64,000 bases of DNA, from positions 1,212-65,211 of IMG/VR virus record IMGVR_UViG_3300037471_000178; one strand, 5' to 3'. A model generated the notes under the pieces. It had not been told where the DNA came from. It ran no database searches and worked only from the letters and a program-made list of their open reading frames with translations. Positions within the stretch are counted from its first letter, which is position 1. Every line of letters begins with the position of its first letter. The translations under genes and the position numbers were made by a program. Shown one piece after another: positions 4,780-21,316 of this stretch. The stretch comes from a virus (Duplodnaviria; Caudoviricetes).

Positions 4780-5371
4780 ATGCGCGGCGCATCCGGGCAA
4801 GGATCACCGCACCGATGGATAGCGTCATCAACGCTCCCGGCTCCGGCAGTTCGGTCGGATCACCGGCCCGGATAACCGGGCTAATCGCAGTCCAGCTATC
4901 GGATTTGAACGTCAGGTTGTCCATCCCCATCGTATTCAGTTCTAGCCCGTTGATCTGTCCGTTGCCATACATAGTGAAGTAGTGGTCGGACGGCAGGTTG
5001 TACCACTTGAACCCGGCGTCATCTATCCACACCGCGTCCATGCGGTAGTCGTTTGCCAGCGCGTAAGAAAACGCGCCCCACCGGAACGCTTGCACGTAGC
5101 CCTGAAAGCTGATCTGCGACAGATCGGCATGCGTATCAAACGATACCCGCGATGCCCCCTCCAAGAATGCGCCGTTGTCGCCGTACCGAACTCGCCCGCC
5201 GTTGAAATAGATGCCGTAGTTCGGGCCACTATTGCCGCAGCTATCGGTGCCACCTGCGTAATACCCTTGCACCAGCCCATAGTCGCACACACCATCGAAG
5301 GTCAGTACCGGCCCTGCCAGCGCCGATGCAGTCATGATTGATGCTGCGAGTCCCATCAGTTTGCCTTTCAT
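4778..5371 (-). CDS. PEP-CTERM sorting-signal protein
   Basis: Signal peptide MKGKLMGLAASIMTASALA; C-terminus ELPEPGALMTLSIGAVILARMRRA = PEP motif + TM helix + basic tail. Confidence 0.88.
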   Translation of the reverse strand: MKGKLMGLAASIMTASALAGPVLTFDGVCDYGLVQGYYAGGTDSCGNSGPNYGIYFNGGRVRYGDNGAFLEGASRVSFDTHADLSQISFQGYVQAFRWGAFSYALANDYRMDAVWIDDAGFKWYNLPSDHYFTMYGNGQINGLELNTMGMDNLTFKSDSWTAISPVIRAGDPTELPEPGALMTLSIGAVILARMRRA

Positions 5372-5382
5372 TTTCAGCTCCA

Positions 5383-5410
5383 GAAAAAGAAAGCCCGTCC
5401 TAAGACGGGC
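5383..5410 (-). terminator. Intrinsic terminator
   Basis: GCCCGTC-ttag-GACGGGC then TTTCTTTTT on minus strand. Confidence 0.75.
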
Positions 5411-5433
5411 ATTAATGGCTCCCTTGTCACGGC

Positions 5434-6081
5434 TTAATGTGCGTGGAGTTGCCGCCGTTTGGCCTTTTCCTCCATTGCGTCAAGTTCCCGGTCGATGGTT
5501 AGGCGGAACGCTTCAACCACTTCCCGCGCTTCCTTCCGGGTTAGCCTCCCATCTGGCTTGGTCGCCTGTGCCGCCTCTAGTGCCGCCAGCCGACGTTGCG
5601 CCCACTGTGACCACATCTTGCTGGTAAAGTCCAAGCGGGCCTGACCAGTCAGTTGTGCATGCGGCGGGCGCAGCATGTTTTCAATCTTCACCAAACGACG
5701 CAGACGCTCACGCATCGCTGCCACGTATCCGCGATTCGCTTCAGCAGCAATCTCTCGCTGCTCCTCCTGCCAGATGGCTCGCTCAATATCAGTCTCGCCG
5801 TTAAGCAGAGCCTTGAGCGATGTGTATGGCAGGTTGCGATTTGCCCGCTTGCGCATAATCAGACGAACCACGGCACGAAATGCGGTGGAATCATTTGATG
5901 CCAATTCCAGCAATGGGTTATACACGGAGAGTTCCCCTGCAAATCTTACAGAGTCTCCCGGAATTTCCAGTACGCTTTTCAGACGTTTCACCATGTCATC
6001 AATATCGCGTCGCTGGACCAGTTCTCCCACTGGCTGAATTAGTTGATTAGCGGAAGCTTTCGTTTCGTTAATAGTGTGCAT
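5434..6081 (-). CDS. Hypothetical helical protein
   Basis: 215 aa ORF followed by a terminator. Confidence 0.6.
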   Translation of the reverse strand: MHTINETKASANQLIQPVGELVQRRDIDDMVKRLKSVLEIPGDSVRFAGELSVYNPLLELASNDSTAFRAVVRLIMRKRANRNLPYTSLKALLNGETDIERAIWQEEQREIAAEANRGYVAAMRERLRRLVKIENMLRPPHAQLTGQARLDFTSKMWSQWAQRRLAALEAAQATKPDGRLTRKEAREVVEAFRLTIDRELDAMEEKAKRRQLHAH

Positions 6082-6163
6082 GTGTTGCCCCGTTCTATTA
6101 AATTTTATCCTTATTGGTTGCAGTGTAAGCGCTAATTACTGTTCAGCGCTATCGGAGGTTGTC

Positions 6164-8077
6164 CTACTTTGCTTCTCCATAGCGATCTGCCACGTCCCCT
6201 TCTGACCATGTAACCAAATCAGGCCACCATACCGGAGGCGTCCTGAAGATACACTGCAAGTATTCGAGTTTTTCTACCGCAGTTTGTTCCTTCTCAATGA
6301 ATACAATTTCGTCATAAACCCGCAAACAAGACGTAATTCCCGTTTCTATATAGAAACGCGCATCGGCTTCCACCATTACATCACGCGCCAAAGCTTGCAC
6401 AATATTCTCGACCATTTTCCCGCCGTAAATATATGCCTTGTGCCTGCCGTGGGCATAAACCCATTGCTGCTTTCCGTCGTTCTTATTCACTTCCATTCGC
6501 AAATCGGGGTAACGAATTATCCTTCCTGAAGGCAATACAATTCCCTCTTTGCAGGTATGCGTTAATCCCCACGGATCAATCGCAATTTCCTTTCCTTCTT
6601 TAATGGCCCGCAGCATATCCTGACACCGATACCATCCGTTCTGAATCTCGGGATGCTCGCGCCGCCATTCAACCACCGCATGCTGTGCCTGTTCATCCGT
6701 GAGCACCACGTTGCCCATCGTCTTCGCAACGCCACGGAAGGTCTTGCCGCCAGCACCGAATCCCAGACCGAGCGCTTTGACTTTCTCAAGTTGTCTCTGA
6801 TCTTTTGATACTTCATCCGGCGCACAGCCATACAACTTCACCGCTGCCATGCGATACAGGTCCGCGTCTGCCTTCTCCTGCCACATGCGCGTCGAGTACG
6901 GGACTTTCCACAGGAAGTGATTCACCCGCAACTCGATGCCGGACAAGTCAGCCACGCACACCTTGTAACCCTTCGGCGCACACAGCGACATGCGCAGCGC
7001 ATCGCTAGGCCGGGGAATCTGGCCAATCCTCGGCAGGTTCAGCATGTTGTACTGCTCGCCGCTATCCCTGCCCGTGGTGTCCGCGCCGCAGTACCGGATC
7101 GGCACCGGCAGCTTCCCGCCACAGGCTCGCCCTGCCCGGATGAACTTCTGGATGCGCGTTTCTAGCAGGGTGGACTTCACCCCGAGCCGTGCGCCAGCCA
7201 GCGTTGCCACCGTCAGATCGTCGCTCTCCAGCAGGGCCAGCATGCCTTCGTCGTTCTTGGCTAGCGCCGGGATCATCACGCCTTCCTTCTTCGGGCTTGG
7301 CTTCAGCGGTACTTCACAGCCAATCGCCTCCAGCATGGCGGCGAACTTCGGTGCCGACGCAATATCGCCCTTCAGCACTTCCAGCATCGCTTCCTCGGAG
7401 TCGTCCTGCCACTCCCGGCCAAGCATGTCAGCCACATTCAGCAGGGCACGGCGCTTCATTTCCTGCACTTCTTCCAGCGTCGATTCCAGCATGCCGAAGT
7501 CCAGCACGAACTGCGGGTTCACCAGCTTTTCTACCAGCAGATGAATCTGCAGCATTTCCCGCGCCCCGATGCGCTTGCTGAAATTCTTGAACAACGCATA
7601 GCACTGGTCGGTGTCCATCGCGTTGTACACAGCCATCGCATCCAGTTCTTCCTGCGTGAAGTCGCACAGGTGCTTGCCCTTCGTATTCAGCAGGATCGTG
7701 TTGTCCTTCTCGCCTAACCCGTACTCCTTCACCAGTGCGGCCAGCGACACGCCACAGGTCTTGGCATGGTAGGGCCGCGCCATCGCCGCCGTACATGCCC
7801 ACATGCGGGGCTGGATGCCGAATCGCCAGCGCACGATCATGCTGTCGAAGCCGCTCATGTTGTGCCCGACACAGATGGCTTGCGTCCAATCAATGTCGTT
7901 CAGTGCCATGCGTACATTTGCTTCGCCGAAGTACACATTCGTCTGGCCATCGTTGATCTTGATGGCGCACGAAATGATTTCGGTGTCCGGGTGCATCACG
8001 TATTCGGTCGGCGGCATCTTGGTCAGCGAGTGCGTCACCGACCAATAGCTTTCAAAATCCAATGTGACAATGTTCAT
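6164..8077 (-). CDS. DNA polymerase family A with 3'-5' exonuclease domain
   Basis: TLDFES (ExoI), VGHNMSGFD (ExoII), DLSGIELRV (motif A), RQLEKVKALGLGFG (motif B), VYDE (motif C); start reassigned to MNIVTLDFES. Confidence 0.92.
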   Translation of the reverse strand: MNIVTLDFESYWSVTHSLTKMPPTEYVMHPDTEIISCAIKINDGQTNVYFGEANVRMALNDIDWTQAICVGHNMSGFDSMIVRWRFGIQPRMWACTAAMARPYHAKTCGVSLAALVKEYGLGEKDNTILLNTKGKHLCDFTQEELDAMAVYNAMDTDQCYALFKNFSKRIGAREMLQIHLLVEKLVNPQFVLDFGMLESTLEEVQEMKRRALLNVADMLGREWQDDSEEAMLEVLKGDIASAPKFAAMLEAIGCEVPLKPSPKKEGVMIPALAKNDEGMLALLESDDLTVATLAGARLGVKSTLLETRIQKFIRAGRACGGKLPVPIRYCGADTTGRDSGEQYNMLNLPRIGQIPRPSDALRMSLCAPKGYKVCVADLSGIELRVNHFLWKVPYSTRMWQEKADADLYRMAAVKLYGCAPDEVSKDQRQLEKVKALGLGFGAGGKTFRGVAKTMGNVVLTDEQAQHAVVEWRREHPEIQNGWYRCQDMLRAIKEGKEIAIDPWGLTHTCKEGIVLPSGRIIRYPDLRMEVNKNDGKQQWVYAHGRHKAYIYGGKMVENIVQALARDVMVEADARFYIETGITSCLRVYDEIVFIEKEQTAVEKLEYLQCIFRTPPVWWPDLVTWSEGDVADRYGEAK

Positions 8078-8529
8078 AGGAACCGTTGGATGATCTGATT
8101 CACTTGCGATTGGGAAATGCGGAAGCCCTGCGCCAACTGGTGCTGCGTCCACTCCCGCGTCTTGTAATACTGCGCGATGGTACGCTTCTGCTCCTCGTTG
8201 TACGGCGGCTGCCAGCCATGATCCGGCAGTGGGGTTTTCTCTGCCTTGAGCGAACGCGAGTTCGGAACAACGACAAAGTGCGCCGGGTTGCAGCAGCTCT
8301 TGTTGCCGCACTTCTGCTTCACGAATCCACCGTCACGCCCCTTCATCACGGGGTCGCTGAGTAAGCCAGCGTAGTACGCGGCCAGCCGGTGGGCACGATA
8401 CGACACGCCTCCATAAATAAGCTGACCGTAGCCACGGTTCAGGAAACCCATGAAAGGCCAGCATGCGTCCGGGCCACCGCGCTTGTCAACGCGCCTCCAG
8501 AAGTACTTCTCTAGTCTGTTTGCAGTCAT
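8074..8529 (-). CDS. HNH (Cys-His box-like) endonuclease with C-terminal HTH
   Basis: CWPFMG..GYGQL..AHRLA..CGNKSCCNPAH; TQHQLAQGFRISQSQVNQI. Confidence 0.75.
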   Translation of the reverse strand: MTANRLEKYFWRRVDKRGGPDACWPFMGFLNRGYGQLIYGGVSYRAHRLAAYYAGLLSDPVMKGRDGGFVKQKCGNKSCCNPAHFVVVPNSRSLKAEKTPLPDHGWQPPYNEEQKRTIAQYYKTREWTQHQLAQGFRISQSQVNQIIQRFL

Positions 8530-8553
8530 GAAATCACTCCGTTGTCATTTGAC

Positions 8554-8901
8554 TTACATCGAGAGGGACAAACCCCCAACGACCAAGTATTTGTCCCGCG
8601 TCATTTCCGCAGGACCGTTGCCAAATAATGCAGCCACCAACTCATCGCGCTTGGCTGGTGCCTGATACCCTGCCTCCGGTACAGCCCGGTACACCCGCAG
8701 CTTCGCCGTTGACCCGACACCATCCTCCAACCAGCCCCTACGCAGCAACCGAACAATGTATGCCCGCATCGTACTGAAAGGGATATCCATGTCGGTTGCC
8801 ATCTGTTTCATCGTGCGTTCCTGCCTGCGGAACTCGTCCATCACCTTCGCCAGTTTCCATTCCAGTTCATCGTTGCGGCCTTCGTCCATCATCGACTCCA
8901 A
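8554..8901 (-). CDS. Winged-HTH-like DNA-binding protein
   Basis: TMKQMATDMDIPFSTMRAYIVRLLRRGWLE...RVYRA. Confidence 0.6.
   Translation of the reverse strand: MESMMDEGRNDELEWKLAKVMDEFRRQERTMKQMATDMDIPFSTMRAYIVRLLRRGWLEDGVGSTAKLRVYRAVPEAGYQAPAKRDELVAALFGNGPAEMTRDKYLVVGGLSLSM
8565..8597. repeat. 33-bp bipartite inverted repeat, copy 1 (intragenic)
   Basis: GGGACAAACCC-N11-GTATTTGTCCC. Confidence 0.8.
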
Positions 8902-9067
8902 TGTTGTCTATTAACCACAGCAAGACGGTGCGGAGTTCGTCCGTCGTCTGTGCCTGTGTAACGATCTGCATGGCTTCACGCTTTTGCAGATGCCGACGTG
9001 CCTGATCCTCGCTGATGCGCAAGTTGTACTGAATGCCCGCTATTTCTTCCCTTGTGAACCCGCGCAT
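8867..9067 (-). CDS. Hypothetical protein
   Basis: 66 aa ORF with GGAG RBS. Confidence 0.55.
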   Translation of the reverse strand: MRGFTREEIAGIQYNLRISEDQARRHLQKREAMQIVTQAQTTDELRTVLLWLIDNIGVDDGRRPQR

Positions 9068-9111
9068 ACTTTCTCCAAAGATAAATCCGGGCGCTAGGCC
9101 CGGATGGTTGG

Positions 9112-9513
9112 TTAGATTTTCTTGCCGCCGTCTGCTTGCCGGTTGGCGATCTGATGATCAGCTCGCTTGGCGTTGTACCGCACCTTCTCTGCGATAGCCC
9201 CGCCAAGGTCCAGCCCTAACGCGCCAGCCAGATCACCGATACGGATAACCGCATCAGCCAGCTCGACTTCAATCATCGGCCTGTGGGGTAGCTTATCATC
9301 TTGTAAGCCTTTGCGATAGCCCTCCGTTGCTTCGGCTACCTCGGTCACAATCAACATCAGCTTGGATAGCACCAGTTCCGGCGTGATCGTCAGTGGTTGT
9401 CCGGTCTGCAGATCAGACCACCAGCCCGCTTTCTCCGCCGCGTTATGACATGTCAGTGCCAGTACCACGCCGGACATGCGCAGCAAGTGTTCGTCCATTT
9501 TGTCGTTGCTCAT
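9112..9513 (-). CDS. MazG-like nucleotide pyrophosphohydrolase
   Basis: LMLIVTEVAEATEG.RK...EVELADAVIRIGDL..LDL..AIAEK..YN..R. Confidence 0.85.
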   Translation of the reverse strand: MSNDKMDEHLLRMSGVVLALTCHNAAEKAGWWSDLQTGQPLTITPELVLSKLMLIVTEVAEATEGYRKGLQDDKLPHRPMIEVELADAVIRIGDLAGALGLDLGGAIAEKVRYNAKRADHQIANRQADGGKKI

Positions 9514-9832
9514 TCTCGATTTCTCCTAGATATTTCCGTCGTCCTTGTGCCTGCCGTTCCATCTTCACGCGCAGTCGCCGCTTCAGACGGTTCGCTTCAA
9601 TATCACGCCTGAATCTGATGTTCAAGTCTTGGTCAACTACCAAATGCTTCTCGTCGCTTCCCTGCCGTACCTGCTTGGATATATGCCAGTCCCGGCAGTG
9701 GGGGCAACGATATGCCACCATCTGCTTAACTTCCTGCTGGATCAGCATGAACTCCTGCGCCGCTACCGCTGCTAACCCGGCGCTCATGTAACGCTTCTTG
9801 CTGGTACAGCCTTTTGCAACGTCGAAGCGCAT
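9443..9832 (-). CDS. Hypothetical protein with CPHCRDWH zinc-ribbon-like motif
   Basis: Start reassigned to MRFDVAKG (GGAGG RBS). Confidence 0.6.
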   Translation of the reverse strand: MRFDVAKGCTSKKRYMSAGLAAVAAQEFMLIQQEVKQMVAYRCPHCRDWHISKQVRQGSDEKHLVVDQDLNIRFRRDIEANRLKRRLRVKMERQAQGRRKYLGEIENEQRQNGRTLAAHVRRGTGTDMS

Positions 9833-10071
9833 CACGCCTCCGCTAGTTTGTACCGCTCCAGAATCTTCGCCTTGATGGAAGCGGGAACCTTCGCCAACGG
9901 ATGCCACCCGACGAAATACTTGTGGCTATCCGCACCCCATATCGTCTTGCCTGCTTCGCAGCCGTCAAAGTTCAGCACGTTCACCATCTGTCCATTCCTC
10001 GGTGCCTCCGGCGTGACCTCCAGCCAGTACACATCGGGATCGACAACGATGCCATCGCTGTTCACTTTCAT
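9832..10071 (-). CDS. Hypothetical protein
   Basis: MKVNSDG... with GGAGG RBS. Confidence 0.6.
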   Translation of the reverse strand: MKVNSDGIVVDPDVYWLEVTPEAPRNGQMVNVLNFDGCEAGKTIWGADSHKYFVGWHPLAKVPASIKAKILERYKLAEA

Positions 10072-10196
10072 TTCAGCCTCCAGAAAAAAGGCCACATGCC
10101 AAGCAGAATCGCTACCATTGTATAAACGGCCATCATGATCACTCTCCCCTTGTGATAACGGGGCTAGCGTAACACGACTAACCCCGTTCTCTTACA

Positions 10197-10364
10197 TCAG
10201 CACTTCGGCATCTTGCCCTTGCCCATCATCTGCGGAGGCATCGCGCCCGGAACACCTTTGGTGGTCTTGGCCGGTTGCTTCGCGCCGAAATGGGTGCTCG
10301 GTGCTTTCTTGCCCCTAGCGCCGCTCGGCACTACTGGCCCTACTTTGGTCTTGGAGGTTGCCAT
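10197..10364 (-). CDS. Small basic K/G/P/M-rich protein (55 aa)
   Basis: Manual translation MATSKTKVGPVVPSGARGKKAPSTHFGAK...MMGKGKMPKC; AAGGA RBS; not in ORF track. Confidence 0.5.
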   Translation of the reverse strand: MATSKTKVGPVVPSGARGKKAPSTHFGAKQPAKTTKGVPGAMPPQMMGKGKMPKC

Positions 10365-10620
10365 CTTCAATCCTTCGATCTAGTTCATCCAGAAATTCGA
10401 CAAGCGCTTCGCCGGTATGCGCGGCTTTAGCTATGTCGGCGTTCCCGCCCTTATCACGTTCTCGGGCGAGATACGCAATAATAGTTCCTTTCATGTAGCC
10501 ACGATACTCCTCCGGTGTAAGCCAAGCTTTCAGTACTTCCCACGGTTGGTACACACCGAGCTTGTGATAGTGGTCGCCGCCCACCTGCCGGTCTGTTGCG
10601 CGTCGGTTATTTGCAGTCAT
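10315..10620 (-). CDS. DUF3310-family protein
   Basis: QVGGDHY..PWEV..GY.KG.IIAYLAR...KGG..DIAKA.H. Confidence 0.8.
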   Translation of the reverse strand: MTANNRRATDRQVGGDHYHKLGVYQPWEVLKAWLTPEEYRGYMKGTIIAYLARERDKGGNADIAKAAHTGEALVEFLDELDRRIEDGNLQDQSRASSAERR

Positions 10621-10636
10621 GAAACCCCCTCAAGGT

Positions 10637-10661
10637 AAAAAAGCCGGGGTTGCCCCCCGGC
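10637..10661 (-). terminator. Intrinsic terminator
   Basis: GCCGGGG-gcaa-type hairpin followed by TTTTTT on minus strand. Confidence 0.75.
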
Positions 10662-10668
10662 GTTTTGT

Positions 10669-11271
10669 TTAGTGCTTCTGATCATCGTGTTGCGCTAGCG
10701 CCGCATCAATATCAATCGGCTCGTTGCTCGCCTCCTGCGGTGCCGTCACCACGTCCAGAATGTTCTCCAGCGTTTGTTCGTGTCGCTTGTGCATCTGCTC
10801 CATGTGGGTCAGCAACTCCTGAATGCCCATGAGCTGATCCCGAATAGCCAGCACGTCCTGCCGCACAATCGCCACGTCAGCCGCCGTGCTGGTGTCTACG
10901 GCAGGAGACTTGGTCTTGAGGATTTGGTTCACCCCATCGGCAATGGTGTCCATGTCACGACGAATGTGCCGCAACTCCTGCAGGCTGATAGCAGGCGATT
11001 CCGGAGTCTTCGCTACTTCCTTGGGCTTGGGCTTGGTGTGCTCCTCAATGAAATTGTGCAGCCACGCTCTGGCAGGGCCAGCTTCCCACAGCGTTGACGC
11101 CCTTCCGCCTGTTCCGAGCGGGGTCACTACATGCGGGATTTCGGCTTCCTTCATCATGTTCTCAACCTTGGAGTGGTAGCCCACCAGCCCCCGGTTCTTC
11201 AGTTCTGTATAGAAGAAGTTGGTCGGCAGATGAGATATGTCATCCATCGTGCGCTTACGTTTCGCAGTCAT
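10669..11271 (-). CDS. Hypothetical protein with coiled-coil C-terminus
   Basis: 200 aa ORF with AAGGAG RBS. Confidence 0.65.
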   Translation of the reverse strand: MTAKRKRTMDDISHLPTNFFYTELKNRGLVGYHSKVENMMKEAEIPHVVTPLGTGGRASTLWEAGPARAWLHNFIEEHTKPKPKEVAKTPESPAISLQELRHIRRDMDTIADGVNQILKTKSPAVDTSTAADVAIVRQDVLAIRDQLMGIQELLTHMEQMHKRHEQTLENILDVVTAPQEASNEPIDIDAALAQHDDQKH

Positions 11272-11289
11272 TTCTAGCTCCTTGTGAAT

Positions 11290-11322
11290 GGGACAAATCC
11301 CTGAGTGATAAGGATTTGTCCC
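11290..11322. repeat. 33-bp bipartite inverted repeat, copy 2
   Basis: GGGACAAATCC-N11-GGATTTGTCCC. Confidence 0.85.
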
Positions 11323-11328
11323 TGTTGA

Positions 11329-11496
11329 TTACATCTTCTTCCCATCCTGATCCAGACCGAGCGCCAGCATAAGCTTCACCATGCGAGTCTCCATCCGAAT
11401 CAACCGCTGCGTGTTCTGACGATCTATCTCAACGAGTTCGTTGATCTTGACCATCAGCGCATCCAACCTCTCCAAGATCAGCTTGTCATTAAACAT
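11329..11496 (-). CDS. Small coiled-coil hypothetical protein (55 aa)
   Basis: Manual translation MFNDKLILERLDALMVKINELVEID... Confidence 0.55.
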   Translation of the reverse strand: MFNDKLILERLDALMVKINELVEIDRQNTQRLIRMETRMVKLMLALGLDQDGKKM

Positions 11497-11708
11497 GACT
11501 GGCCCCCATCCAAGAGTGCGGACTGAAGCGCTGCCGCATCGCCTTGAATCACAGGCCGAAGATCAGGTAGATATAGCAGCCCGATCTTAACTCTGGGCTT
11601 TGTGATTCCCCGACTTGCCATCCATGCTAGCTGTCGGCGTCTTGCTTCCTCAATGGGCAAGACCTCCCCATTAACTGTTGCCTTCATCGACTTTCTCCTT
11701 TTCCTCAT
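11478..11708 (-). CDS. Hypothetical protein
   Basis: 76 aa ORF (start possibly MKATV). Confidence 0.45.
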   Translation of the reverse strand: MRKRRKSMKATVNGEVLPIEEARRRQLAWMASRGITKPRVKIGLLYLPDLRPVIQGDAAALQSALLDGGQSCLMTS

Positions 11709-12987: not shown

Positions 12988-13057
12988 GATGATTCCTTTC
13001 AGTTAGTAAGTAAATTAAGTTGCAGGGCTAGCCCATTGCCAGCCCTGTTTGCTGCAA

Positions 13058-13276
13058 TTACCGCTTGATACCACGCCAAGACAAACGCTGGAACGCCGAC
13101 TTGTGCACTCTCAGTTCGTGTGCGACTTTAGCGGAAGTAGCCTGAAAACACCAAACCGTCCCGTCCCAATAGCTGTACATGAAGTTGCCGTTGAACCCGC
13201 GCTGATACACACCGACTCGCGCCGGCTTAATCGTGTACGGATACCAGTCCGTCAACTGCAATTTGCGCTTGCCCAT
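13058..13276 (-). CDS. Hypothetical protein
   Basis: 72 aa aromatic-rich ORF coupled to the amidoligase stop (TAATG). Confidence 0.6.
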   Translation of the reverse strand: MGKRKLQLTDWYPYTIKPARVGVYQRGFNGNFMYSYWDGTVWCFQATSAKVAHELRVHKSAFQRLSWRGIKR

Positions 13277-15252
13277 TATGCATTCTCCTCATGCGGGGTC
13301 AGTTCAGTAATCACAGCCGGTGCCGACGCATGCTGACGCGGCATGTACACATTGAAGCCACGCTGCGACAGGTACGTACGCAGGTAACGAGTCTCATGGC
13401 GATTCTCCGGTGCGCTGATGTACTCACAGAACTTCTCGGTTGTGAGGTCAGCCGCCGCATGATCGCGGGAGAACAGCCACGCAGCCTGTGCAAACTCCAC
13501 GCATGCCAGAATGGTGACAGGCATCATGCTGCCCTTGAACACACGAATCTCCACCGTCTTCGGGTTCGTGAAGTTCACCATCTGATAGCGGTCGCCGTCA
13601 GACAAATTCGTGACTGCATTCTCGATCACCTGCTGCCATGTGTAGCCATACGATCTGATCATGCGCTTGATGTTGCCACCCAAAGACCGCTTGGTGTTGT
13701 ACTGCACGTTCGCCTTGTCCTTGCCCTCGGCAACCTTGGCATAGTTCACCGAGTACCGGCGAGCGATGGCCTTGATCAGTTGCTTGTTTGCCGGGTCGTT
13801 GTAGAACGCTTGCATCTTCACCGCATGCATCAGCGACTTCGGCTTGGCCAGATGCACATGCAGACCACAGGACGAGCGGGCATCATGGCTGTGCAGCAGG
13901 CGACGATACGGCAGCTTGCCATCTTCACCACGACCGAAAATCTTCTCGATGTGATAGCGATGCACTTCCGCCGAACCATACGACGTAACCATTTCAAAGC
14001 CATACGACACCGAACCGTCACGCTCCAAGAACGCATAGCCCGGAACCCTCTTGCCATTCCAACCTTCCGGCTTGGCATTCAGGATACGGCCCATCACACG
14101 CTGCGCTGCATCCTCACGATCCCCCTCGCAGCCGGGGACACACTCCATTTCCAGTTCAACGCCGATGGTCAGGCCGTTGAAGTGAGTGCCATCCAGATTC
14201 GGCAGCGCACCGATGCGACGCTTGGACGAGTGATACTCACCAATCACAGGCGGCGGCTGATGGGTACGCTTGCTGCCATCCGGCCATGTGTACCCACGGA
14301 AGTCAGTCCGTGCCAGTACTTCGACACCAATCTCGTTGAGCAGAGTATGCGTCTGGATTCCCTGCATGCAGTGCTGGCAGTACGACTCTTCACCATGACG
14401 CGACATGACCTCAGCGATGCGGTTGACGAACTCATAGTGACCGCAGCCAGCAGGACTAACCGGGTTGTCCGGGTGCTTGGCGTGCCACACGTTGAGCGCT
14501 ATGCTCATATTGGCCGAGTTTACTGACGTACGGATGGAGTTCAAGAACTGGTATCCATCACGACCTTCCTCGACACGCTTGGCTGCCTTGGCGATAGCCT
14601 GCAGCGCGGTCTTCACCTGATTGGCCTGCTCGGTGTGCGGCTTCCATGTGCTGACCCTGATCCACGGATACGATCCGGGCTGGATTGCTTCCTTGCGACC
14701 AGCCGCGCCGAACTTGTTCATCGAGCAGCGACGATTGAACTCAAGCTCGGCCAGCTTGTTGTACATCTTCTGCTTGAAGTTATCCAGCACCGACGAGCGG
14801 CTGTGGTCGATGTTCCAGCGCACATACGCCATCATCGACGTTGAACCCCGGCGCATCGTATCCTCTTCCTCGTTGCGGGCATTGAGGATGCGGATATGCT
14901 GGCGATTAACCGCTACCGTCAAGAGCTGCTTGGGCAAGCCATCACGCCCTGCAGCGAACTGATCGTTGTTGATCCGCATGATCGCCACGGTAGTCGATAG
15001 ACCGCACAGCGGGCGAATCATAGCCAGCCTGCGCTCGCTGTTATACGACACGCATACGCCACGGAACTGCGACGAGATACGAGTGCGGCCCCACGAATGA
15101 TCCTTGACATCAACTCGCACAAACATACCCGGCTTGAGAATCTGACCGCGCTTGACGGTATTCTCTGCGGTCATCACTGGTGCAAGGAAGCTGTCCAGAG
15201 TTACTTCGTTGCCGCGCAGGAGTTTGCTAGCGAAGATGGTTTGAGTGGTCAT
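13276..15252 (-). CDS. Putative amidoligase (COOH-NH2 ligase, Amidoligase_2-like)
   Basis: TIGVELEME, ERDGSVSYGFEMVT, SCGLHVH, RYQMVN, TVEIRVFKGS. Confidence 0.82.
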   Translation of the reverse strand: MTTQTIFASKLLRGNEVTLDSFLAPVMTAENTVKRGQILKPGMFVRVDVKDHSWGRTRISSQFRGVCVSYNSERRLAMIRPLCGLSTTVAIMRINNDQFAAGRDGLPKQLLTVAVNRQHIRILNARNEEEDTMRRGSTSMMAYVRWNIDHSRSSVLDNFKQKMYNKLAELEFNRRCSMNKFGAAGRKEAIQPGSYPWIRVSTWKPHTEQANQVKTALQAIAKAAKRVEEGRDGYQFLNSIRTSVNSANMSIALNVWHAKHPDNPVSPAGCGHYEFVNRIAEVMSRHGEESYCQHCMQGIQTHTLLNEIGVEVLARTDFRGYTWPDGSKRTHQPPPVIGEYHSSKRRIGALPNLDGTHFNGLTIGVELEMECVPGCEGDREDAAQRVMGRILNAKPEGWNGKRVPGYAFLERDGSVSYGFEMVTSYGSAEVHRYHIEKIFGRGEDGKLPYRRLLHSHDARSSCGLHVHLAKPKSLMHAVKMQAFYNDPANKQLIKAIARRYSVNYAKVAEGKDKANVQYNTKRSLGGNIKRMIRSYGYTWQQVIENAVTNLSDGDRYQMVNFTNPKTVEIRVFKGSMMPVTILACVEFAQAAWLFSRDHAAADLTTEKFCEYISAPENRHETRYLRTYLSQRGFNVYMPRQHASAPAVITELTPHEENA

Positions 15253-15282
15253 TTTGTACTCCGTAAATAAGTGAATGAGAGT

Positions 15283-15315
15283 GGGACAAGTCCTTAACCA
15301 CTAAGGATATGTCCC
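15283..15315. repeat. 33-bp bipartite inverted repeat, copy 3
   Basis: GGGACAAGTCC-N11-GGATATGTCCC. Confidence 0.85.
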
Positions 15316-15333
15316 CGGTACTGCGGGTCTAGC

Positions 15334-15726
15334 TTAGTGCAACGTCGGGTTATCGTCCTCGTCAATCGGAAACTGCTGTTGCTGCGGTAGAACTTCTGCA
15401 TCGCCACGCTCGATCAGATCACCAAGCGCGTCCATGATCTTGTTGAGCAGCTTGATCTGGCGCAACTCACCAAACACGCGGTCGAATGAGCGGGTCATAT
15501 CTTCCTTCGTCCATGCGCTGTTGCCAACGATCACCGATGCATCATCGAAGTAGCGGTTGATGATCATGTCGTCACGCGCCTTCTCATACGCTGCCTTATC
15601 GCCGGTTTCGTACACAGCGAGAACCGCTTTCACTGTTTCAATCGGGATCAGGTCACGCAGGGATTCGGCTTGGCTCAGGCCGATGTAGACGCCTTTCTTC
15701 AACTCGACTTGCTGTTCCGCTTTCAT
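15334..15726 (-). CDS. Hypothetical protein
   Basis: Start reassigned to MKAEQQ (AAGGAG RBS). Confidence 0.6.
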   Translation of the reverse strand: MKAEQQVELKKGVYIGLSQAESLRDLIPIETVKAVLAVYETGDKAAYEKARDDMIINRYFDDASVIVGNSAWTKEDMTRSFDRVFGELRQIKLLNKIMDALGDLIERGDAEVLPQQQQFPIDEDDNPTLH

Positions 15727-15740
15727 GTCAGCTCCTTGTT

Positions 15741-15773
15741 GGGACATTTCCCCGGCCCTTGGGGATTTGTCCC
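15741..15773. repeat. 33-bp bipartite inverted repeat, copy 4
   Basis: GGGACATTTCC-N11-GGATTTGTCCC. Confidence 0.85.
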
Positions 15774-15824
15774 GGTTGGTTATGTGCTGCTTGGGCCTTA
15801 CTGTTTCGATCTACTATGAGACAT

Positions 15825-15853
15825 ATTATACATGAGTGTAAGCGTCATGTCAA
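15825..15853 (-). promoter_or_regulatory. Sigma70-type promoter TTGACA-N17-TATAAT
   Basis: Perfect consensus; GCTTACA in spacer; 21 nt spanning the -10 box and start region identical to the promoter at 19992-20020. Confidence 0.88.
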
Positions 15854-15862
15854 ATAAATGTC

Positions 15863-16048
15863 TTACTCCGCATGCACGTCCAAGATGACGTTGTTGGCAT
15901 CCACCTTTAGGACAGCGCGGCTCCTGCCCTGCGAGTGGGTGAAGCCTTCGCCGGGGCGGACTACGTGGACCTCGTGGAAGGCAATCTTCAGGGCGTCCAT
16001 CAGGTCATCGGTCAGGGTGCGACCGATCAGCGATGCGAGTGCGATCAT
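15863..16048 (-). CDS. Hypothetical protein
   Basis: 61 aa ORF with GAGGAG RBS. Confidence 0.6.
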   Translation of the reverse strand: MIALASLIGRTLTDDLMDALKIAFHEVHVVRPGEGFTHSQGRSRAVLKVDANNVILDVHAE

Positions 16049-16081
16049 GTGTTTCTCCTCGTTAAAATGCAGTCATGAAAA

Positions 16082-16420
16082 TCAGTACTGGTCGTCATAT
16101 TGACCGGCCAAAAATTCTACGCGAATACAGGCAATACGCGACGATGATGATTCCGCATCAGCCTCGGCCCGTGTCGCATGTCCGGGCTTGCCCCGGTAGA
16201 TGTTGACGTACCGCACGATCTTCTCGGGCGGGTTAATCAAGTCATCCTGCGATTCCTCGCCAGTCACATAGAACTTACCGTCACGGCCCCACGACGATAG
16301 CGTGGTGCTGCGTCCGATGTAGCCAAGGATGGGCTGACGCCCACGGCCATCAATGCTTACCAACGTCACTGTCTCGCCACTGCGGGTGCGCAGTGTCTCG
16401 TCAAAGATCAACGTAGTCAT
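16082..16420 (-). CDS. Hypothetical protein (single copy of a repeated phage domain)
   Basis: LRTRSGETV...ILGYIG...WGRDGKFY...DDLIN, homologous to modules in the adjacent ORF. Confidence 0.7.
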   Translation of the reverse strand: MTTLIFDETLRTRSGETVTLVSIDGRGRQPILGYIGRSTTLSSWGRDGKFYVTGEESQDDLINPPEKIVRYVNIYRGKPGHATRAEADAESSSSRIACIRVEFLAGQYDDQY

Positions 16421-16429
16421 GATCGTTCC

Positions 16430-17026
16430 TTAGTTGAGTTCGATTTCAAAGGGCAGCACAGTCAGAACCCGCACATTCGGGTACATGGTGCGAAGCGTTT
16501 TCTCATCGGCATAGATGCCAGTACTGCGCAGCTCGCCGTTGGAGTCAAGGACGATGCCGACCACACCATTGCGTACCTCGGGCACGTTCTCAAGGTCCAT
16601 TTCAGATGGGGTATCACAGTACTGCCCCTCCGCGTTCCATGTAGACGGCAGAAGGTTCGTGCCGATATAGCCAATGAGTTCCTTACCCGGACGCCCACCA
16701 GTGGAAATAATCTCCACTTCCAAGCCGTGCTTGGTGCGAATGGGTCGGCTGAAATCAAGGTCTTTCACTTCGTTCTCCTTCACGTTGGGAATCAGGTCAT
16801 GCGGGTGATCGTATTTCTCACGCAGGTACTTGCCGTTGTACGTGTACGCCATGCATAAATCCCTGCCGTCGCAGTCACGCACTAGGTCAACCGTCGCGGG
16901 GAAGGCGTCTCGAACAAAGCCGCTTTTTATCTTAGTCAGCCTTACGTTCAGCACTGTCATCCCGCTTTTTGTGAATATCGGTTTTGTCAGGTCGAACTTT
17001 TTTGGGTTCAGTGGTTTCATCCTCAA
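16430..17026 (-). CDS. Hypothetical protein (two copies of the same domain)
   Basis: PIFTKSG...YNGKY...HDLI and PIRTKHG...LIGYIG...WNAEGQY...MDLEN. Confidence 0.7.
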   Translation of the reverse strand: MRMKPLNPKKFDLTKPIFTKSGMTVLNVRLTKIKSGFVRDAFPATVDLVRDCDGRDLCMAYTYNGKYLREKYDHPHDLIPNVKENEVKDLDFSRPIRTKHGLEVEIISTGGRPGKELIGYIGTNLLPSTWNAEGQYCDTPSEMDLENVPEVRNGVVGIVLDSNGELRSTGIYADEKTLRTMYPNVRVLTVLPFEIELN

Positions 17027-17231
17027 GCTCCTTCTTCGGTGGGTTGCGATAGTCGAACGCCACCTTGGTCATGTTCGTGGCGATACCAAACGCCACCTTG
17101 GACAGCGTGTACTCCAGACTGTCCCCGTTCTTACGCGCCATGCTGCTCAGCCATGCATGATGTGCCCGGTCGAGCAGCGCTTGCATGGCTAGCCCCGCGT
17201 AGTGTTCCCGCAAATCGCGCCTATCCATCAC
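16932..17231 (-). CDS. Hypothetical protein
   Basis: DLREHYAGLAMQALL motif, common in small phage proteins. Confidence 0.6.
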   Translation of the reverse strand: MMDRRDLREHYAGLAMQALLDRAHHAWLSSMARKNGDSLEYTLSKVAFGIATNMTKVAFDYRNPPKKELEDETTEPKKVRPDKTDIHKKRDDSAERKAD

Positions 17232-17539
17232 ACCCCCACATCGTCTGTCTTATCCAGCTCAAGATGGAGGATTTCCAGTTGCCCCTTGATCCACCCCCGG
17301 CAGTCCGCTGCCGTTACGTTATGCGCTCCTTCCATCCATTCTATGAGTTCATCGACCCACTGGAACACCGACGATTTCATGGCGTTCAGCCCGCCAAGAT
17401 GGGTGAACACTTCAGCCCGCCTTCGGCTCGTCATTTCGCCGAAGAAATACCCGGTGTAATACATCGCCAGCAGTTGCACTTGCCTCGTTGAGTCCATGTC
17501 AGTCATCCTCATCATCGTTGTTGATGCCAAATGCTGCAC
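17228..17539 (-). CDS. Hypothetical protein
   Basis: ORF in early cluster; start uncertain. Confidence 0.5.
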   Translation of the reverse strand: MQHLASTTMMRMTDMDSTRQVQLLAMYYTGYFFGEMTSRRRAEVFTHLGGLNAMKSSVFQWVDELIEWMEGAHNVTAADCRGWIKGQLEILHLELDKTDDVGV

Positions 17540-17594
17540 ACAGCAGCGTCGTCACCGATGCGCTCAGCGCGAACAGTATCAATGCAGTCATGAT

Positions 17595-17954
17595 TCATTT
17601 CCCTTTCTTGGTTAAGTCAGAAAGCATTTCATCCAGCTTGGCATTGACCACGGCTTGCACCTTCTGGCCTGTTGCAGAGTTGACTGCCTCTTTAGCTAGG
17701 CTAGCACCAGCCATCATGTACATCGTGCGCTCGGATGGCAGTAGCGCCGACACAATAAACGACACGAAGCTCAACCACACTAGCGTCGTGCAGTACGGCT
17801 GCCACGGTTTCTTACTGTTCTCGTCCATGTATTCCATGCCGCGAGCGAATACCCCAACGACAACAGCGGCTATCAACAGAACGCCAAAGGTAAAGAAAAC
17901 GACACTGACTTTATCCAGCACGTTTGCCAAGTAAATAAATAGTTCGATGCTCAT
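17595..17954 (-). CDS. Hypothetical membrane protein (2 TM)
   Basis: Two hydrophobic segments; LPSERTMYMMAG motif. Confidence 0.7.
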   Translation of the reverse strand: MSIELFIYLANVLDKVSVVFFTFGVLLIAAVVVGVFARGMEYMDENSKKPWQPYCTTLVWLSFVSFIVSALLPSERTMYMMAGASLAKEAVNSATGQKVQAVVNAKLDEMLSDLTKKGK

Positions 17955-18139
17955 GAATTCCTCGCGTTAAAAAACCGAACAAACCAGTAGCCATTGATCG
18001 TTGCCAGCACCAGTTCAATAAGCGCCGACCCAATCTGGCCTTCGCGCAATAGCGATACTGCCGCTACCGACAGGAGCAAACACACTAGCAGATTCGATGC
18101 TGCTAGCACGGTGCACAGGATTTTCCATTTTTGGTTCAC
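17951..18139 (-). CDS. Small membrane protein
   Basis: Two hydrophobic stretches; ATGA overlap with next gene. Confidence 0.55.
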   Translation of the reverse strand: MNQKWKILCTVLAASNLLVCLLLSVAAVSLLREGQIGSALIELVLATINGYWFVRFFNARNS

Positions 18140-18256
18140 GACGTTCTCCTAGTTTGTGTTGACAGATAATCATAGCGATGGCGAATCCAATGAGGAATCC
18201 GCCAAGCCACAGCCCTAGCAGGGCTAGCCCCATGCCGGGGCGTCTGCGCTGCGCGT

Positions 18257-18568
18257 TCATGGCCTTGCTCCGTAGTCGAAACCCGGTGGCGTCTTGATTG
18301 AAAGCGAACGCACCAAGCTACTCACTTTCTCATCTGCCCATGCGTCATCATCCGTGCAGAGCTGCAGTTTCATGACGCGCTCATAAGGCACAAGGGATTT
18401 CTCCCCGTTGTGCCACTTCACCAAGTAGCTATCCACTACCTGCGGCCCTTCGATGGTCTGCACCGTGCGTATCTTGCGCGAGCCGATAATCACGCCAGCC
18501 TGTTTGTTCATGCGAGCCGAGCTACCCTTGAACCCCACACCCATGACCTGATCGCCTTTCTTGAACAT
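18257..18568 (-). CDS. Hypothetical protein (SH3-like beta barrel)
   Basis: MFKKGDQV...GVIIG...YLVKW pattern; AGGAG RBS. Confidence 0.6.
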   Translation of the reverse strand: MFKKGDQVMGVGFKGSSARMNKQAGVIIGSRKIRTVQTIEGPQVVDSYLVKWHNGEKSLVPYERVMKLQLCTDDDAWADEKVSSLVRSLSIKTPPGFDYGARP

Positions 18569-18577
18569 GATGTTCTC

Positions 18578-18778
18578 CTAGATTGTGTTGAAGAATGCTT
18601 CGATGCGTTCGATATCCGCGAGCTGCCTTCTCAGACTGCGTACGGCCCGCTTGAACTGTCGTCGGGTCCCCACTGCAGCGCTTGCCTCAGTGAGCGTCGC
18701 GTGGCTACGAACATAGTGCCGCTTGGCGCACCGCTTGAAGTATCTGCCCTCCCGCTGATTACGCGACGTGGTATCCAT
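18578..18778 (-). CDS. Small basic hypothetical protein
   Basis: 66 aa with AAGGAG RBS. Confidence 0.55.
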   Translation of the reverse strand: MDTTSRNQREGRYFKRCAKRHYVRSHATLTEASAAVGTRRQFKRAVRSLRRQLADIERIEAFFNTI

Positions 18779-19004
18779 TCCGGTCTGCTCCTTGTTGGGT
18801 TACGGCTCACGGCTATCAGCAGCCACTCGCCATCATAGTTGTTCGCATTTACCACATCGTACCTAACGTCATACAACGCAGACGGCCAGTGTGCCGCCAC
18901 TGTGCGCGTATCACCGTTCTGTATCGCCCTGTTCAACGCTGCGTAGTTCGCATAACGCTTGAGCACATACACCATCTGCCCTTCGGCGTTCAGCGATGCA
19001 GTCA
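18631..19004 (-). CDS. Hypothetical protein
   Basis: Probable start MTASLN; 3' end overlaps the next ORF, boundaries uncertain. Confidence 0.4.
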
Positions 19005-19009
19005 TGAAT

Positions 19010-19240
19010 TCACCGTTCATCACGCCTCCTGTTCGCAGGTGGGACGGATATAGCCATCAGCCGATACGGACGCTCGGCTAGCGGTACGTTCAGATCAATC
19101 GAAATGTCCAGCCGGTACAACTCAGGTGGCCAGTACTTGTCGAACCGGCTATGCACCTGCGGCCATGTCGCGCAGTTGTCCGCTACCAGTGCGCCGTGAC
19201 CCATCCATGTGTGTACGGGATACACAATCTTCTCGTCCAT
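19010..19240 (-). CDS. Hypothetical protein
   Basis: 76 aa with GGAGG RBS. Confidence 0.55.
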   Translation of the reverse strand: MDEKIVYPVHTWMGHGALVADNCATWPQVHSRFDKYWPPELYRLDISIDLNVPLAERPYRLMAISVPPANRRRDER

Positions 19241-19252
19241 GATGCCCCTCCA

Positions 19253-19345
19253 TCAGTAGAGGGTCGTCGTGCAGAGGACGAAGGTGGAAGCCGCACAGTA
19301 CGCCAGCACCGCCACCCATGCCAGAATATCAATAAGCTTGTTCAT
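19253..19345 (-). CDS. 30 aa single-TM peptide
   Basis: MNKLIDILAWVAVLAYCAASTFVLCTTTLY; strong AGGAG RBS. Confidence 0.5.
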   Translation of the reverse strand: MNKLIDILAWVAVLAYCAASTFVLCTTTLY

Positions 19346-19379
19346 GATGTTTCTCCTGTTAATCAGTGAGTGAGAGAAA

Positions 19380-19412
19380 GGGACATATCCCCGGCAATCA
19401 AGGATATGTCCC
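19380..19412. repeat. 33-bp bipartite inverted repeat, copy 5
   Basis: GGGACATATCC-N11-GGATATGTCCC. Confidence 0.85.
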
Positions 19413-19418
19413 CCGTTA

Positions 19419-19589
19419 CTACAGCTTAGTGAGCCAGATGATGTTGGTCGCCGCGCCGATCCATGCAGCGATCTGACCCGGCAGCACCACCGCAGCTATG
19501 ATGCCGAGTCCAACGATCAGCTTGATAGCTATGACACGCTCAACGTGAATAGCCTTGACCTCCCACTTGTGGATTTTGATTGTACGCAT
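19419..19589 (-). CDS. Small membrane protein (56 aa)
   Basis: MRTIKIHKWEV...; GGAGG RBS; TAATG coupling to upstream gene. Confidence 0.6.
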   Translation of the reverse strand: MRTIKIHKWEVKAIHVERVIAIKLIVGLGIIAAVVLPGQIAAWIGAATNIIWLTKL

Positions 19590-19783
19590 TAGTCGCCTCC
19601 TAAAAATACATGACCGATCACCATGAGCAGCAAAACCCCCGCTGCAATGGCATGGCCTCCATGTCCTTCCCACCACGTAAAGCCAAGGTAGGTGCAGTGA
19701 ACAAGTTCATGCATTCGGTCGGATGCAACAATGGCATGCAGACGATGGTTCAGCCAATGCAGGGCGTTATGTAATTGGTGCAT
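19589..19783 (-). CDS. His-rich small membrane protein (64 aa)
   Basis: 10 His in 64 aa plus a C-terminal TM segment. Confidence 0.55.
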   Translation of the reverse strand: MHQLHNALHWLNHRLHAIVASDRMHELVHCTYLGFTWWEGHGGHAIAAGVLLLMVIGHVFLGGD

Positions 19784-19907
19784 TGCTTTCCCTTTCAATA
19801 AGTAAGTAACTGTCAGGCGCTCAGGCTTCGGCTTGCCTGCTACCCGGCACCGCTCGTCATGCGGTGGGTTCTGCTATGGCTCCTTTCATCTAGTGGGTTG
19901 GTCGGTC

Positions 19908-19940
19908 GGGACAGGTCCTTGGTTAGTGGGGAACTGTCCC
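19908..19940. repeat. 33-bp bipartite inverted repeat, copy 6
   Basis: GGGACAGGTCC-N11-GGAACTGTCCC. Confidence 0.8.
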
Positions 19941-19991
19941 GCGTTGCTCTTTACTGCCGCCGATGTGTACTGATTAACTACTATGAGACAT

Positions 19992-20020
19992 ATTATACTG
20001 CTATGTAAGCGTAATGTCAA
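19992..20020 (-). promoter_or_regulatory. Sigma70-type promoter TTGACA-N17-TATAAT
   Basis: Perfect consensus; GCTTACA in spacer. Confidence 0.88.
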
Positions 20021-20275
20021 CTATTTGTCCCTGCGCACTTTCACACCCAAGCTCTCCCAGAACTGCAATTCTTGGGCTGTTCGGCGCGGTCGAAGCTCTC
20101 TGCCTACCACATCATCCCCATCCCATGCGTTCGGGTCTGCTTCCATTTTGCGCAGCCGCGTGAGTAACTGGTTGCGCGTCTTGCATGCGCAGCGATGGTC
20201 GAGCAGCCATTCATCAATCGTCTTGAGTTCGCCGAAAGCAAATATGTGCTTATCTGCGCGCTTGTTTGCAGTCAT
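20021..20275 (-). CDS. Small protein paralogous to the C-terminal domain of the adjacent HNH protein
   Basis: AFGELKTIDEWL...LLTRL vs AFGETKTITAWL...MLARL. Confidence 0.7.
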   Translation of the reverse strand: MTANKRADKHIFAFGELKTIDEWLLDHRCACKTRNQLLTRLRKMEADPNAWDGDDVVGRELRPRRTAQELQFWESLGVKVRRDK

Positions 20276-20287
20276 GATTTCCTCCTA

Positions 20288-20848
20288 TCAAAACGTGGCA
20301 TCACTACGTTTAGCCCGCTTGCGCGGTTGCTGCTCGGCAAACAAAAGTTCCTCGTTGGTTCGCCTAGCCTGCACTTGCTTCTGCACCACGTCTTCAAACG
20401 TCCATTCGTGACCACGGTTCAGCTTGTCTAGCCTAGCTAGCATCTGCTTGCGATTCACTACGCAACGCGGATCATTCAGCCATGCCGTGATTGTCTTGGT
20501 TTCACCAAAGGCAGTGAACTCACGCTCAGGCTTGCCGCCAAACTTCTCCTCCGCATACTTCGACTTGAACCGGCTAACCTTCATGTGCGCAGGATTTACA
20601 CACGATGGATTGCCGCATGTGTCATGCAGATACATTGCATCATCAAAATCAGGATGCTCGCGCAGGTATAGCACCTTGCGAACCGATCTTGTCTTGCTTT
20701 CAATGCTGATGACAGGGTTATGTCCATAGGTCATCGAGCCTTGCCACAAGTAACAACCCGGCACCGACTTGGTATCAAGCAACTGGTGGGCGCGGATACG
20801 GAAACTGTCCCACGCTTTCTGTGTCATGCCGTACGGATATGTGCTCAT
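20288..20848 (-). CDS. HNH-like endonuclease with C-terminal DNA-binding domain
   Basis: CYLWQG...HDTCGNPSCVNPAHM. Confidence 0.7.
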   Translation of the reverse strand: MSTYPYGMTQKAWDSFRIRAHQLLDTKSVPGCYLWQGSMTYGHNPVISIESKTRSVRKVLYLREHPDFDDAMYLHDTCGNPSCVNPAHMKVSRFKSKYAEEKFGGKPEREFTAFGETKTITAWLNDPRCVVNRKQMLARLDKLNRGHEWTFEDVVQKQVQARRTNEELLFAEQQPRKRAKRSDATF

Positions 20849-21316
20849 GTTTGCTCCTTGGTTGAAGAGTTTGCATTGTACTGCGCATTAGACTACATCG
20901 CAATCGTATCAATACTATCTTGGCTAGCGTGTTGTCAGGCCGCGACTAATAGCAGAAATACCTATTCAAGCTGTCAGTTAATATAACCGCGTTTTCTAAT
21001 ACATGGATAGCGAACTAGGTGTGTGTTCTCCCCAAGACGCTAATCTAGGCATGTGTAAGTGAGGGCCATGATTCGTGTGGAATGTCAAATTGGGGCTGCG
21101 TGACCTATATTTATTTATCTATCTAATAGAACAAATAATGAACTGAGAGAAATCCAATGATTAGATATTTTCGCTAATAACCACGAATACGGGCTTGCCA
21201 GCTAGCCTTTCTAGTCTAGTAGCGAACATCTTTACGAGTGCCCGCCGCTGTCGAAAAATGCAGTCATGATTTTGCCTGTATCGCAGCATGCCACACTGTG
21301 CTAGCTACGTTGCACC

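Follow-up and report, generated by a model that had tools for sequence, protein, structure and literature searches.

Our analysis highlights an exact, strand-exclusive 11-base word, TCATGACTGCA, that recurs nine times in the genome of an uncultured soil phage. By analogy with Pseudomonas phage tf, we tentatively propose, with a probability of roughly 0.4, that this 11-mer is the recognition site of a strand-specific nicking system of the tf kind. The genome is IMG/VR record IMGVR_UViG_3300037471_000178 (Duplodnaviria; Caudoviricetes), a 65,211-bp contig of which bases 1212-65211, a stretch of 64,000 nucleotides that we call the window, were analysed; coordinates below are those of the window. 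The contig ends overlap by 127 bases and the record thus represents a circularly assembled phage genome. The sole sequencing run with this DNA is a rhizosphere metagenome, and no RNA run is listed with the stretch, only the source DNA run as assembled contigs. Genes on the minus strand fill 1-23 kb and 59-64 kb (the early arm) and encode an SNF2 helicase, a PD-(D/E)XK nuclease, a family A DNA polymerase, DUF3310, a class II glutamine amidotransferase, an amidoligase-like protein and a DUF927 primase-helicase. Genes on the plus strand fill 23-59 kb (the late arm) and encode the terminase, giant virion proteins and the portal, which is SU10-type in relatives.

Number, strand and enrichment of the 11-mer

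All nine exact copies of TCATGACTGCA lie on the minus strand and none on the plus strand of the whole 65,211-bp genome, where 0.03 would be expected; in shuffled sequences the mean was 0.03 and the maximum 1. Bases 1-1211 of the genome, outside the window, hold no extra copy, and the word is the most over-represented 10- to 12-mer of window and genome alike. Our recount is identical to that of the original prediction, which had reported nine exact copies in one orientation against about 0.03 expected, except that the range it gave for them, 5327-21269, holds eight; the ninth lies at 55313 in the late arm. Variants with one mismatch number a single instance in 64 kb, on the other strand and at chance level. 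Two A or T bases (WW) precede the word in eight copies of nine, and one (W) follows it in all nine.

The original prediction had named a codon-aware and start-aware null as the check on this enrichment, and under such a null the enrichment survives. Five genes start TC-ATG-ACT-GCA versus 0.0005 expected from genome codon usage in a start-aware calculation, the word containing the minor codons ACT (14% of Thr codons) and GCA (18% of Ala codons). Within sense coding sequence, ATGACTGCA is seen seven times, compared with a mean of 1.08 and a maximum of 4 under synonymous shuffling that kept all proteins. The copies, in which the A of the ATG falls at motif start + 8, are as follows (ORF, open reading frame; aa, amino acids; SD, Shine-Dalgarno).

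5327-5337, minus strand: motif copy; ATG at 5335 is codon 13, in frame, of ORF 4778-5371 and falls in its signal peptide; terminator 5410-5393 lies about 55 nt upstream
8521-8531, minus strand: motif copy; ATG at 8529 starts the HNH/His-Me-like gene 8074-8529 (MTANR); GGAG 7 nt upstream
10612-10622, minus strand: motif copy; ATG at 10620 starts the DUF3310 gene 10315-10620 (MTANN); 20 nt after terminator 10661-10643
16068-16078, minus strand: orphan copy (MTAF*, micro-ORF 16076); 20 nt upstream of the ATG of ORF 15863-16048
17583-17593, minus strand: motif copy; ATG at 17591 starts the 30-aa hydrophobic peptide 17499-17591 (MTALI)
18997-19007, minus strand: motif copy; ATG at 19005 starts the 124-aa ORF 18631-19005 (MTASL)
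20267-20277, minus strand: motif copy; ATG at 20275 starts the 84-aa ORF 20021-20275 (MTANK); AGGAGG 5 nt upstream
21259-21269, minus strand: 'leader' orphan copy (MTAFFDSGGHS*, micro-ORF 21267); 100 nt after conserved terminator 21386-21369
55313-55323, minus strand: late-arm copy, antisense within giant ORF 52818-59243; same physical strand as the early copies
16412-16422, minus strand: near-copy TCATGACTACG with 2 mismatches, an uncertain member; its ATG starts ORF 16082-16420

The five gene starts that had been assigned to the motif ATG (HNH, DUF3310, hydrophobic peptide, MTASL and MTANK) all hold, with two start coordinates corrected from 19004 to 19005 and from 17590 to 17591. These five copies have their own, differing SD boxes at 5-8 nt; four copies are without an SD box, both intergenic orphans among them. 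The tiny ORFs MTAF* and MTAFFDSGGHS* read at those orphans, and the in-frame Met read at 5327, are likewise borne out, the latter being codon 13 of a 197-aa protein whose true start is 5371. This signal-peptide protein stands alone between two terminators inside the replication block; it has no Pfam match, and the label PEP-CTERM is that of the original prediction.

Conservation in relatives and change of the word by lineage

Cultured phages are very distant from the window (about 30% identity in polymerase and terminase). Neither megablast against phages nor a scan of viral contigs with a single protein found a close relative, and a viral-contig scan for a 33-bp repeat of the window, described below, found only one unrelated A+T-rich contig. 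Syntenic metagenomic contigs (L001, L006, L099 and others) were retrieved via the amidoligase and the terminase. L001 and L006, which like L098 come from sample 3300048539, have terminases 84% identical to that of the window, and L099, of which 11 kb is available, has one that is 81% identical.

L001 and L006 carry five copies each of the word TCATGACAGT(G), always on the early-gene strand (5:0 each), and four window copies have positional counterparts in these contigs in the same order. The first shared place is that of the leader orphan 21259, between the homologues of early genes 1 and 2 and after a conserved terminator (L001 6133, L006 2336, and the variant AATCATGATAGGG in L099). The second is the copy at 17583, whose counterparts at L001 8552 and L006 4992 are in frame within small hydrophobic peptides, and the third is the orphan 16068, two genes ahead of the amidoligase (L001 9116, L006 5963). 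At the fourth place a copy follows a 200-217-aa gene that comes after the amidotransferase block; the counterpart of 10612 there, L001 14803, starts another gene. Four orthologous L001/L006 copies are identical at 10 of 10 bases within regions that are 73-90% identical, an outcome with a chance probability of about 6e-5. A copy at L006 8179, inside the amidoligase gene, shows one synonymous C/T difference from L001 and may be a chance occurrence. L099 has the single related sequence AATCATGATAGGG, at the leader place only, and none at gene starts within its 11 kb.

The core TCATGAC and the positions are therefore kept between these lineages, and the last four bases are switched in all copies of a lineage together, which is the signature of a cis-acting site with a co-evolving trans-acting factor. 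Since the orphans are conserved at equivalent places, they are sites in their own right. The earlier idea that they are scars of lost cassettes has to be abandoned, as 21259 and 16068 both have counterparts in L001 and L006, and the leader copy also in L099.

Parallel with the nick sites of phages tf and LUZ24

In Pseudomonas phage tf, 14 nicks have been mapped experimentally at 5'-TACT/RTGMC-3', all in the top strand (Glukhov et al. 2012, PMC3517423). In that paper, nick-site positions in LUZ24, PaP3 and MR299-2 are described as similar to those of tf, with TACTATGAC rather than TACTGTGAC as the main word, and tf-type sites are said to have hardly any single-substitution variants. The authors propose that the nickase and its sites co-evolve, and record that site-specific phage nicks have been known since T5, with their function unexplained and no survey of their spread. 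The nicking enzyme goes unnamed there, and a literature search found no later identification.

The window word resembles these sites in many respects. Both are short, exact words confined to one physical strand and present in 9-14 copies, of which most lie in the early half and a few, on the same strand, in the late half; both have almost no near-variants. In both, positions are kept among relatives and the word is switched by lineage, as seen at four places for TCATGACTGCA in the window and TCATGACAGT(G) in L001/L006. The core RTGAC is common to the window word and the tf sites, at some sites the RTG serves as a start codon or the TGA as a stop, and tf and the window both have an amidoligase/glutamine amidotransferase pair in the early region. 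In the tf record (HE611333) we find that the RTG of sites sci1, sci4 and sci11 is the annotated start of tf_04, tf_15 and tf_41 (2099, 5264 and 20791). Inside genes, six further tf sites fall in frame 0 (codons 6, 14, 24, 42, 91 and 346), and at two sites the TGA is a stop codon (p of about 2e-6 by position alone); two nicks are antisense in late genes. The LUZ24 word has 9:0 copies by strand, one on a start codon and three intergenic. The window shows this same mixture of placements. Neither the start-codon coincidence of the tf nicks nor the shared core is mentioned in the accessible part of the tf paper (PMC3517423). The two kinds of site differ in their 5' half (WWTC in the window versus TACT), in the four extra conserved bases after the core of the window word, and in the share of copies on start codons, 3/14 in tf versus 5/9 in the window.

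The exactness, the strand exclusivity, the conserved positions, the lineage-wide change of the word and the likeness to mapped tf sites are shown by the sequences; a nick in this DNA, with its place, enzyme and purpose, is an inference. A phage-encoded activity would put a single-strand nick into the minus strand at the 11-mer, with the cut falling between TC and ATGAC by analogy with TACT/RTGMC in tf. The result would be 'localized single-strand interruptions' as in Pseudomonas phages tf and LUZ24, phiKMV-like phages and T5. A word containing ATGA would be best housed at gene junctions, where there is hardly any constraint on codons 2-3 or on the two bases preceding a start codon; hence five genes would use its ATG, with the other copies in frame or intergenic.

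Further lineages with strand-exclusive words

Two further groups show the same strand exclusivity with other words. A freshwater clade with an amidoligase, represented by 14 loci, carries 2-5 copies of ATGACCGTAG in each locus, invariably on a single strand, the one opposite to the early genes. In loci including L025, L028-L030, L048, L050, L053 and L073 it lies on the strand opposite the amidoligase gene, and related contigs have it at conserved positions. Rhizobium phage RHph_TM3_14A (MN988472), which is cultured and distant, has a DNA polymerase, RecB-like, VRR-NUC and SNF2 block syntenic with the window and carries GCGCACTCA 9:0 by strand between 19468 and 59233. Seven of these copies are in the early arm, spaced 1.5-4.4 kb apart, and the late arm holds the other two. 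No copy falls on a start codon, and variants with one mismatch are no more frequent than by chance. Strand-exclusive exact words thus seem characteristic of this broad group, and the start-codon register of the window looks like a consequence of having an ATGA-containing word at gene junctions. A bolder generalization, which we regard as quite improbable, is that RTGAC-core strand-specific nick sites are a shared, unrecognised trait of many amidoligase-carrying podophages (tf/LUZ24, the window clade and the freshwater clade). Under this generalization, a nick immediately 5' of a start codon would double as a recombination joint driving start-codon-precise turnover of early genes.

Candidate readers and points against nicking

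Several observations weigh against the nick-site proposal. TACTRTGMC has no copy in the window, the core RTGAC alone being shared, and a shared five-base core would arise by coincidence for roughly 2% of random 10-mers. A tblastn comparison of the window with tf and LUZ24 gave only lysozyme and two weak matches in common and no candidate nicking enzyme, and nicks are proven in tf whereas the window is known from sequence alone. With such near-nil homology, the relation is one of functional analogy and not of proven membership. Five of the eight early-arm copies are in exact start-codon register with an SD box, a share above that in tf, which fits a role in translation too. L099-type contigs carry a related word, GTGATAGGGC, on both strands. 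A nickase could not be named. Two genes of the window match HNH PHROG families, the one at 8074-8529 and the following.

20288-20848, minus strand: early gene 2, with a His-Me/HNH-like domain and a helix-turn-helix (HTH)-like module; immediately downstream of the leader copy; could, speculatively, read the site

Both proteins keep their zinc ligands and are without the H-x-C general-base His and the GT..DN motif of canonical relatives, the catalytic residues being assigned after I-PpoI. Gene 2 was considered as the nickase itself and rejected: it is a PHROG family member, but the canonical catalytic residues do not align. Its C-terminal 35-aa module (GETKTL.EWL.DPR...) is found elsewhere in tandem arrays, with up to 27 matched stretches (P0194), and a search by sequence returned no solved relative of gene 2. 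Homologues of gene 2 occupy the same place in L001, L006 and L099, are absent from the motif-less L004 and L012, and were found only in the motif-bearing clade.

Judged by their residues, the two HNH-like proteins look like DNA binders rather than proven nucleases, and they are the candidate readers in an alternative that we consider unlikely. Here the word would be a stoperator-like site. A monomeric phage DNA-binding protein would bind it and, making no cut, would block early transcription or replication or set its timing; one of these catalytically degenerate His-Me/HTH proteins (20288-20848 or 8074-8529) may be that protein. The word is asymmetric, exact, placed at gene junctions and co-oriented with early transcription. 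Its lineage-wide change recalls that of L5 stoperators with their repressor, which are 13-bp asymmetric repressor sites (PMC9283540), dispersed in short intergenic spaces, orientation-dependent and co-evolving with their reader. The apparent loss of catalytic residues, with zinc ligands and HTH-like module retained, and the confinement of gene 2 homologues to the motif-bearing clade, where they adjoin the leader copy, point the same way. L5-type sites, however, follow transcription on both arms of temperate phages, whereas the late arm of the window has no co-oriented copy and its only copy opposes late transcription; the late-arm copies of RHph_TM3_14A and tf also keep the physical strand and not the transcriptional sense. 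The early-arm ORFs that were scanned show, moreover, no sign of lysogeny and no recognisable repressor or integrase; that scan did not extend to the late arm, and neither an integrase nor a repressor was searched for directly.

Action in DNA or in RNA

Whether the word acts in DNA or in RNA bears on the suggestion, made in the original prediction, that it is the target of a RegA-like translational regulator. In this reading, UCAUGACUGCA would be an mRNA operator, to which a protein or an RNA of the phage would bind and so control the translation of a set of early genes, in the manner of RegA or of the start-associated sequences (SAS) of cluster K mycobacteriophages. The late giant-gene mRNA, which carries the exact complement at 55313, could serve as an antisense shut-off. 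We hold this reading to be rather unlikely. What stands of it is that five copies are true starts with an SD box at 5-8 nt and the orphans are without one, that the rare codons are retained in 5/5 start genes, and that all copies are in the early arm save one, whose plus-strand transcript would be anti-motif.

The cluster K SAS and extended SAS (ESAS) offer a likeness: asymmetric 11-13-mers in one orientation, linked to start codons and found in the non-structural arm alone, of unknown function, in genomes that also hold imperfect inverted repeats as a distinct family (Pope et al. 2011, PMC3203893; PMC12699233). The SAS, though, lie 3-7 bp upstream of the start and contain an SD core, whereas the window word overlaps the ATG and codons 2-3 and contains no SD; the window also has orphan, in-frame and late-arm antisense copies. 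T4 RegA operators similarly give an early-gene set a recognition element common to start-codon regions, but RegA sites are degenerate, AU-rich and act at the RNA level, whereas the window word is exact and some of its copies are at no gene start. A scan of 40 early ORFs (Pfam, PHROG) found neither RegA nor any other RNA-binding family, and a non-homologous RNA binder may be encoded.

The placement of the copies argues further against an operator in mRNA. Consensus sigma-70 promoters on the minus strand lie at 22236, 20903, 20020 and 15853, and intrinsic terminators lie directly upstream of three motif copies. The leader copy follows by 100 nt a terminator conserved in all four phages and precedes the next promoter by 355 nt, and it is therefore probably not in mRNA. 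In-frame internal copies are 36-50 nt within genes, the antisense late-arm copy follows the physical strand and not the transcriptional sense, and the strand-exclusive words of the relatives sit off starts or on the antisense strand. The nine copies have no common RNA fold or accessibility pattern, and Rfam yielded no matching family. Two other readings were tried and set aside. A sigma-70 promoter or leaderless start is at odds with the unconserved sequence upstream of the word and the presence of SD boxes, and a stop-start overlap at the motif TGA holds for two L001 copies and for none in the window.

Possible cassette exchange at the motif

The original prediction had also suggested that the word allows start-codon-precise exchange of gene cassettes, with breakpoints in related phages as the check. 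Gene content does change at the motif: the insertion of a 188-aa gene in L006 stops precisely at a motif copy, one orphan of L006 is the stump left by a 67-aa gene still started there in L001, and the equivalent copy starts DUF3310 in the window and a dGTPase-like gene in L001. These changes are suggestive, but breakpoints back the idea only marginally, with 2/17 homology ends in L001/L006 near a site (p of about 0.05), and the scar part of the claim fell with the conserved orphans.

A stricter form, in which the copies are pure recombination joints, micro-homologies for swapping early-gene cassettes at the start codon with no other function, would account for these insertions, stumps and replaced genes. 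It is nonetheless very unlikely in our view: orphans keep their places between phages with protein identities of only 25-45%, selection would be expected against direct repeats flanking essential genes, and in a third lineage, the freshwater clade, ATGACCGTAG stands at 0/918 homology ends versus 7.8 expected.

Neighbouring elements and a possible role in replication

Between the leader copy and promoter 20903-20875 lies an A+T-rich stretch (20950-21200) with repeated TATTAG-like words and the lowest G+C of the window, which may be a replication origin; the equivalent place in L012 holds six CGTCGTCTTTCTACA iterons. One could imagine that the 1076-aa primase-helicase reads the word as a priming or initiator site and that the leader copy flanks this putative origin. 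The complement of the word contains GTC, the T7-type primase triplet; the copies after the leader copy are spaced 1-1.5 kb apart, the TATTAG stretch adjoins the leader copy, and a DUF927/P4-alpha-like primase-helicase is present. We nevertheless give this idea very little credence, as the need for 11 exact bases goes far beyond known primase triplets and iterons normally cluster.

A second repeat family of the window is a 33-bp imperfect inverted repeat, GGGACAWWTCC-N11-GGAWWTGTCCC, found between early genes, often after a consensus promoter and before an SD box, at the following positions.

8565-8597: 33-bp repeat
11290-11322: 33-bp repeat
15283-15315: 33-bp repeat
15741-15773: 33-bp repeat
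19380-19412: 33-bp repeat
19908-19940: 33-bp repeat
22258-22290: 33-bp repeat
54971-55003: 33-bp repeat
63760-63792: 33-bp repeat

Its halves vary without clear compensation, which gives it the look of a protein site rather than of an RNA hairpin. One repeat sits 33 nt upstream of the motif copy at 8521, and the late-arm copy is sandwiched by two direct half-sites (55305-55339) within the giant ORF, in coding sequence. The repeat takes other forms in relatives, GCGACAAACTCCC in L001 and GACATTCCGGGA..TCCCGGTTTGTC in L015, and in L099-type contigs GTGATAGGGC lies 3-4 nt after a half-site. Two perfect TTGACA-17-TATAAT promoters on the minus strand, 20020-19992 and 15853-15825, are each followed by TGTCTCATAGTAG and then by the 33-bp repeat.

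Biological implications

If the word is a nick site, nicking systems reach an uncultured soil podophage clade, and such systems would be recognisable from sequence by exactness, restriction to one strand, conserved positions and lineage-wide change of the word. The tf nicks that fall on start codons, together with the core that they have in common with the window word, hint that nicking and gene junctions are connected. Rhizobium phage RHph_TM3_14A, cultured and with the same 9:0 layout, offers a bench system for nicking. Should the word instead be a protein or mRNA operator, it would still represent an unusually sharp regulon signal with co-evolving specificity.

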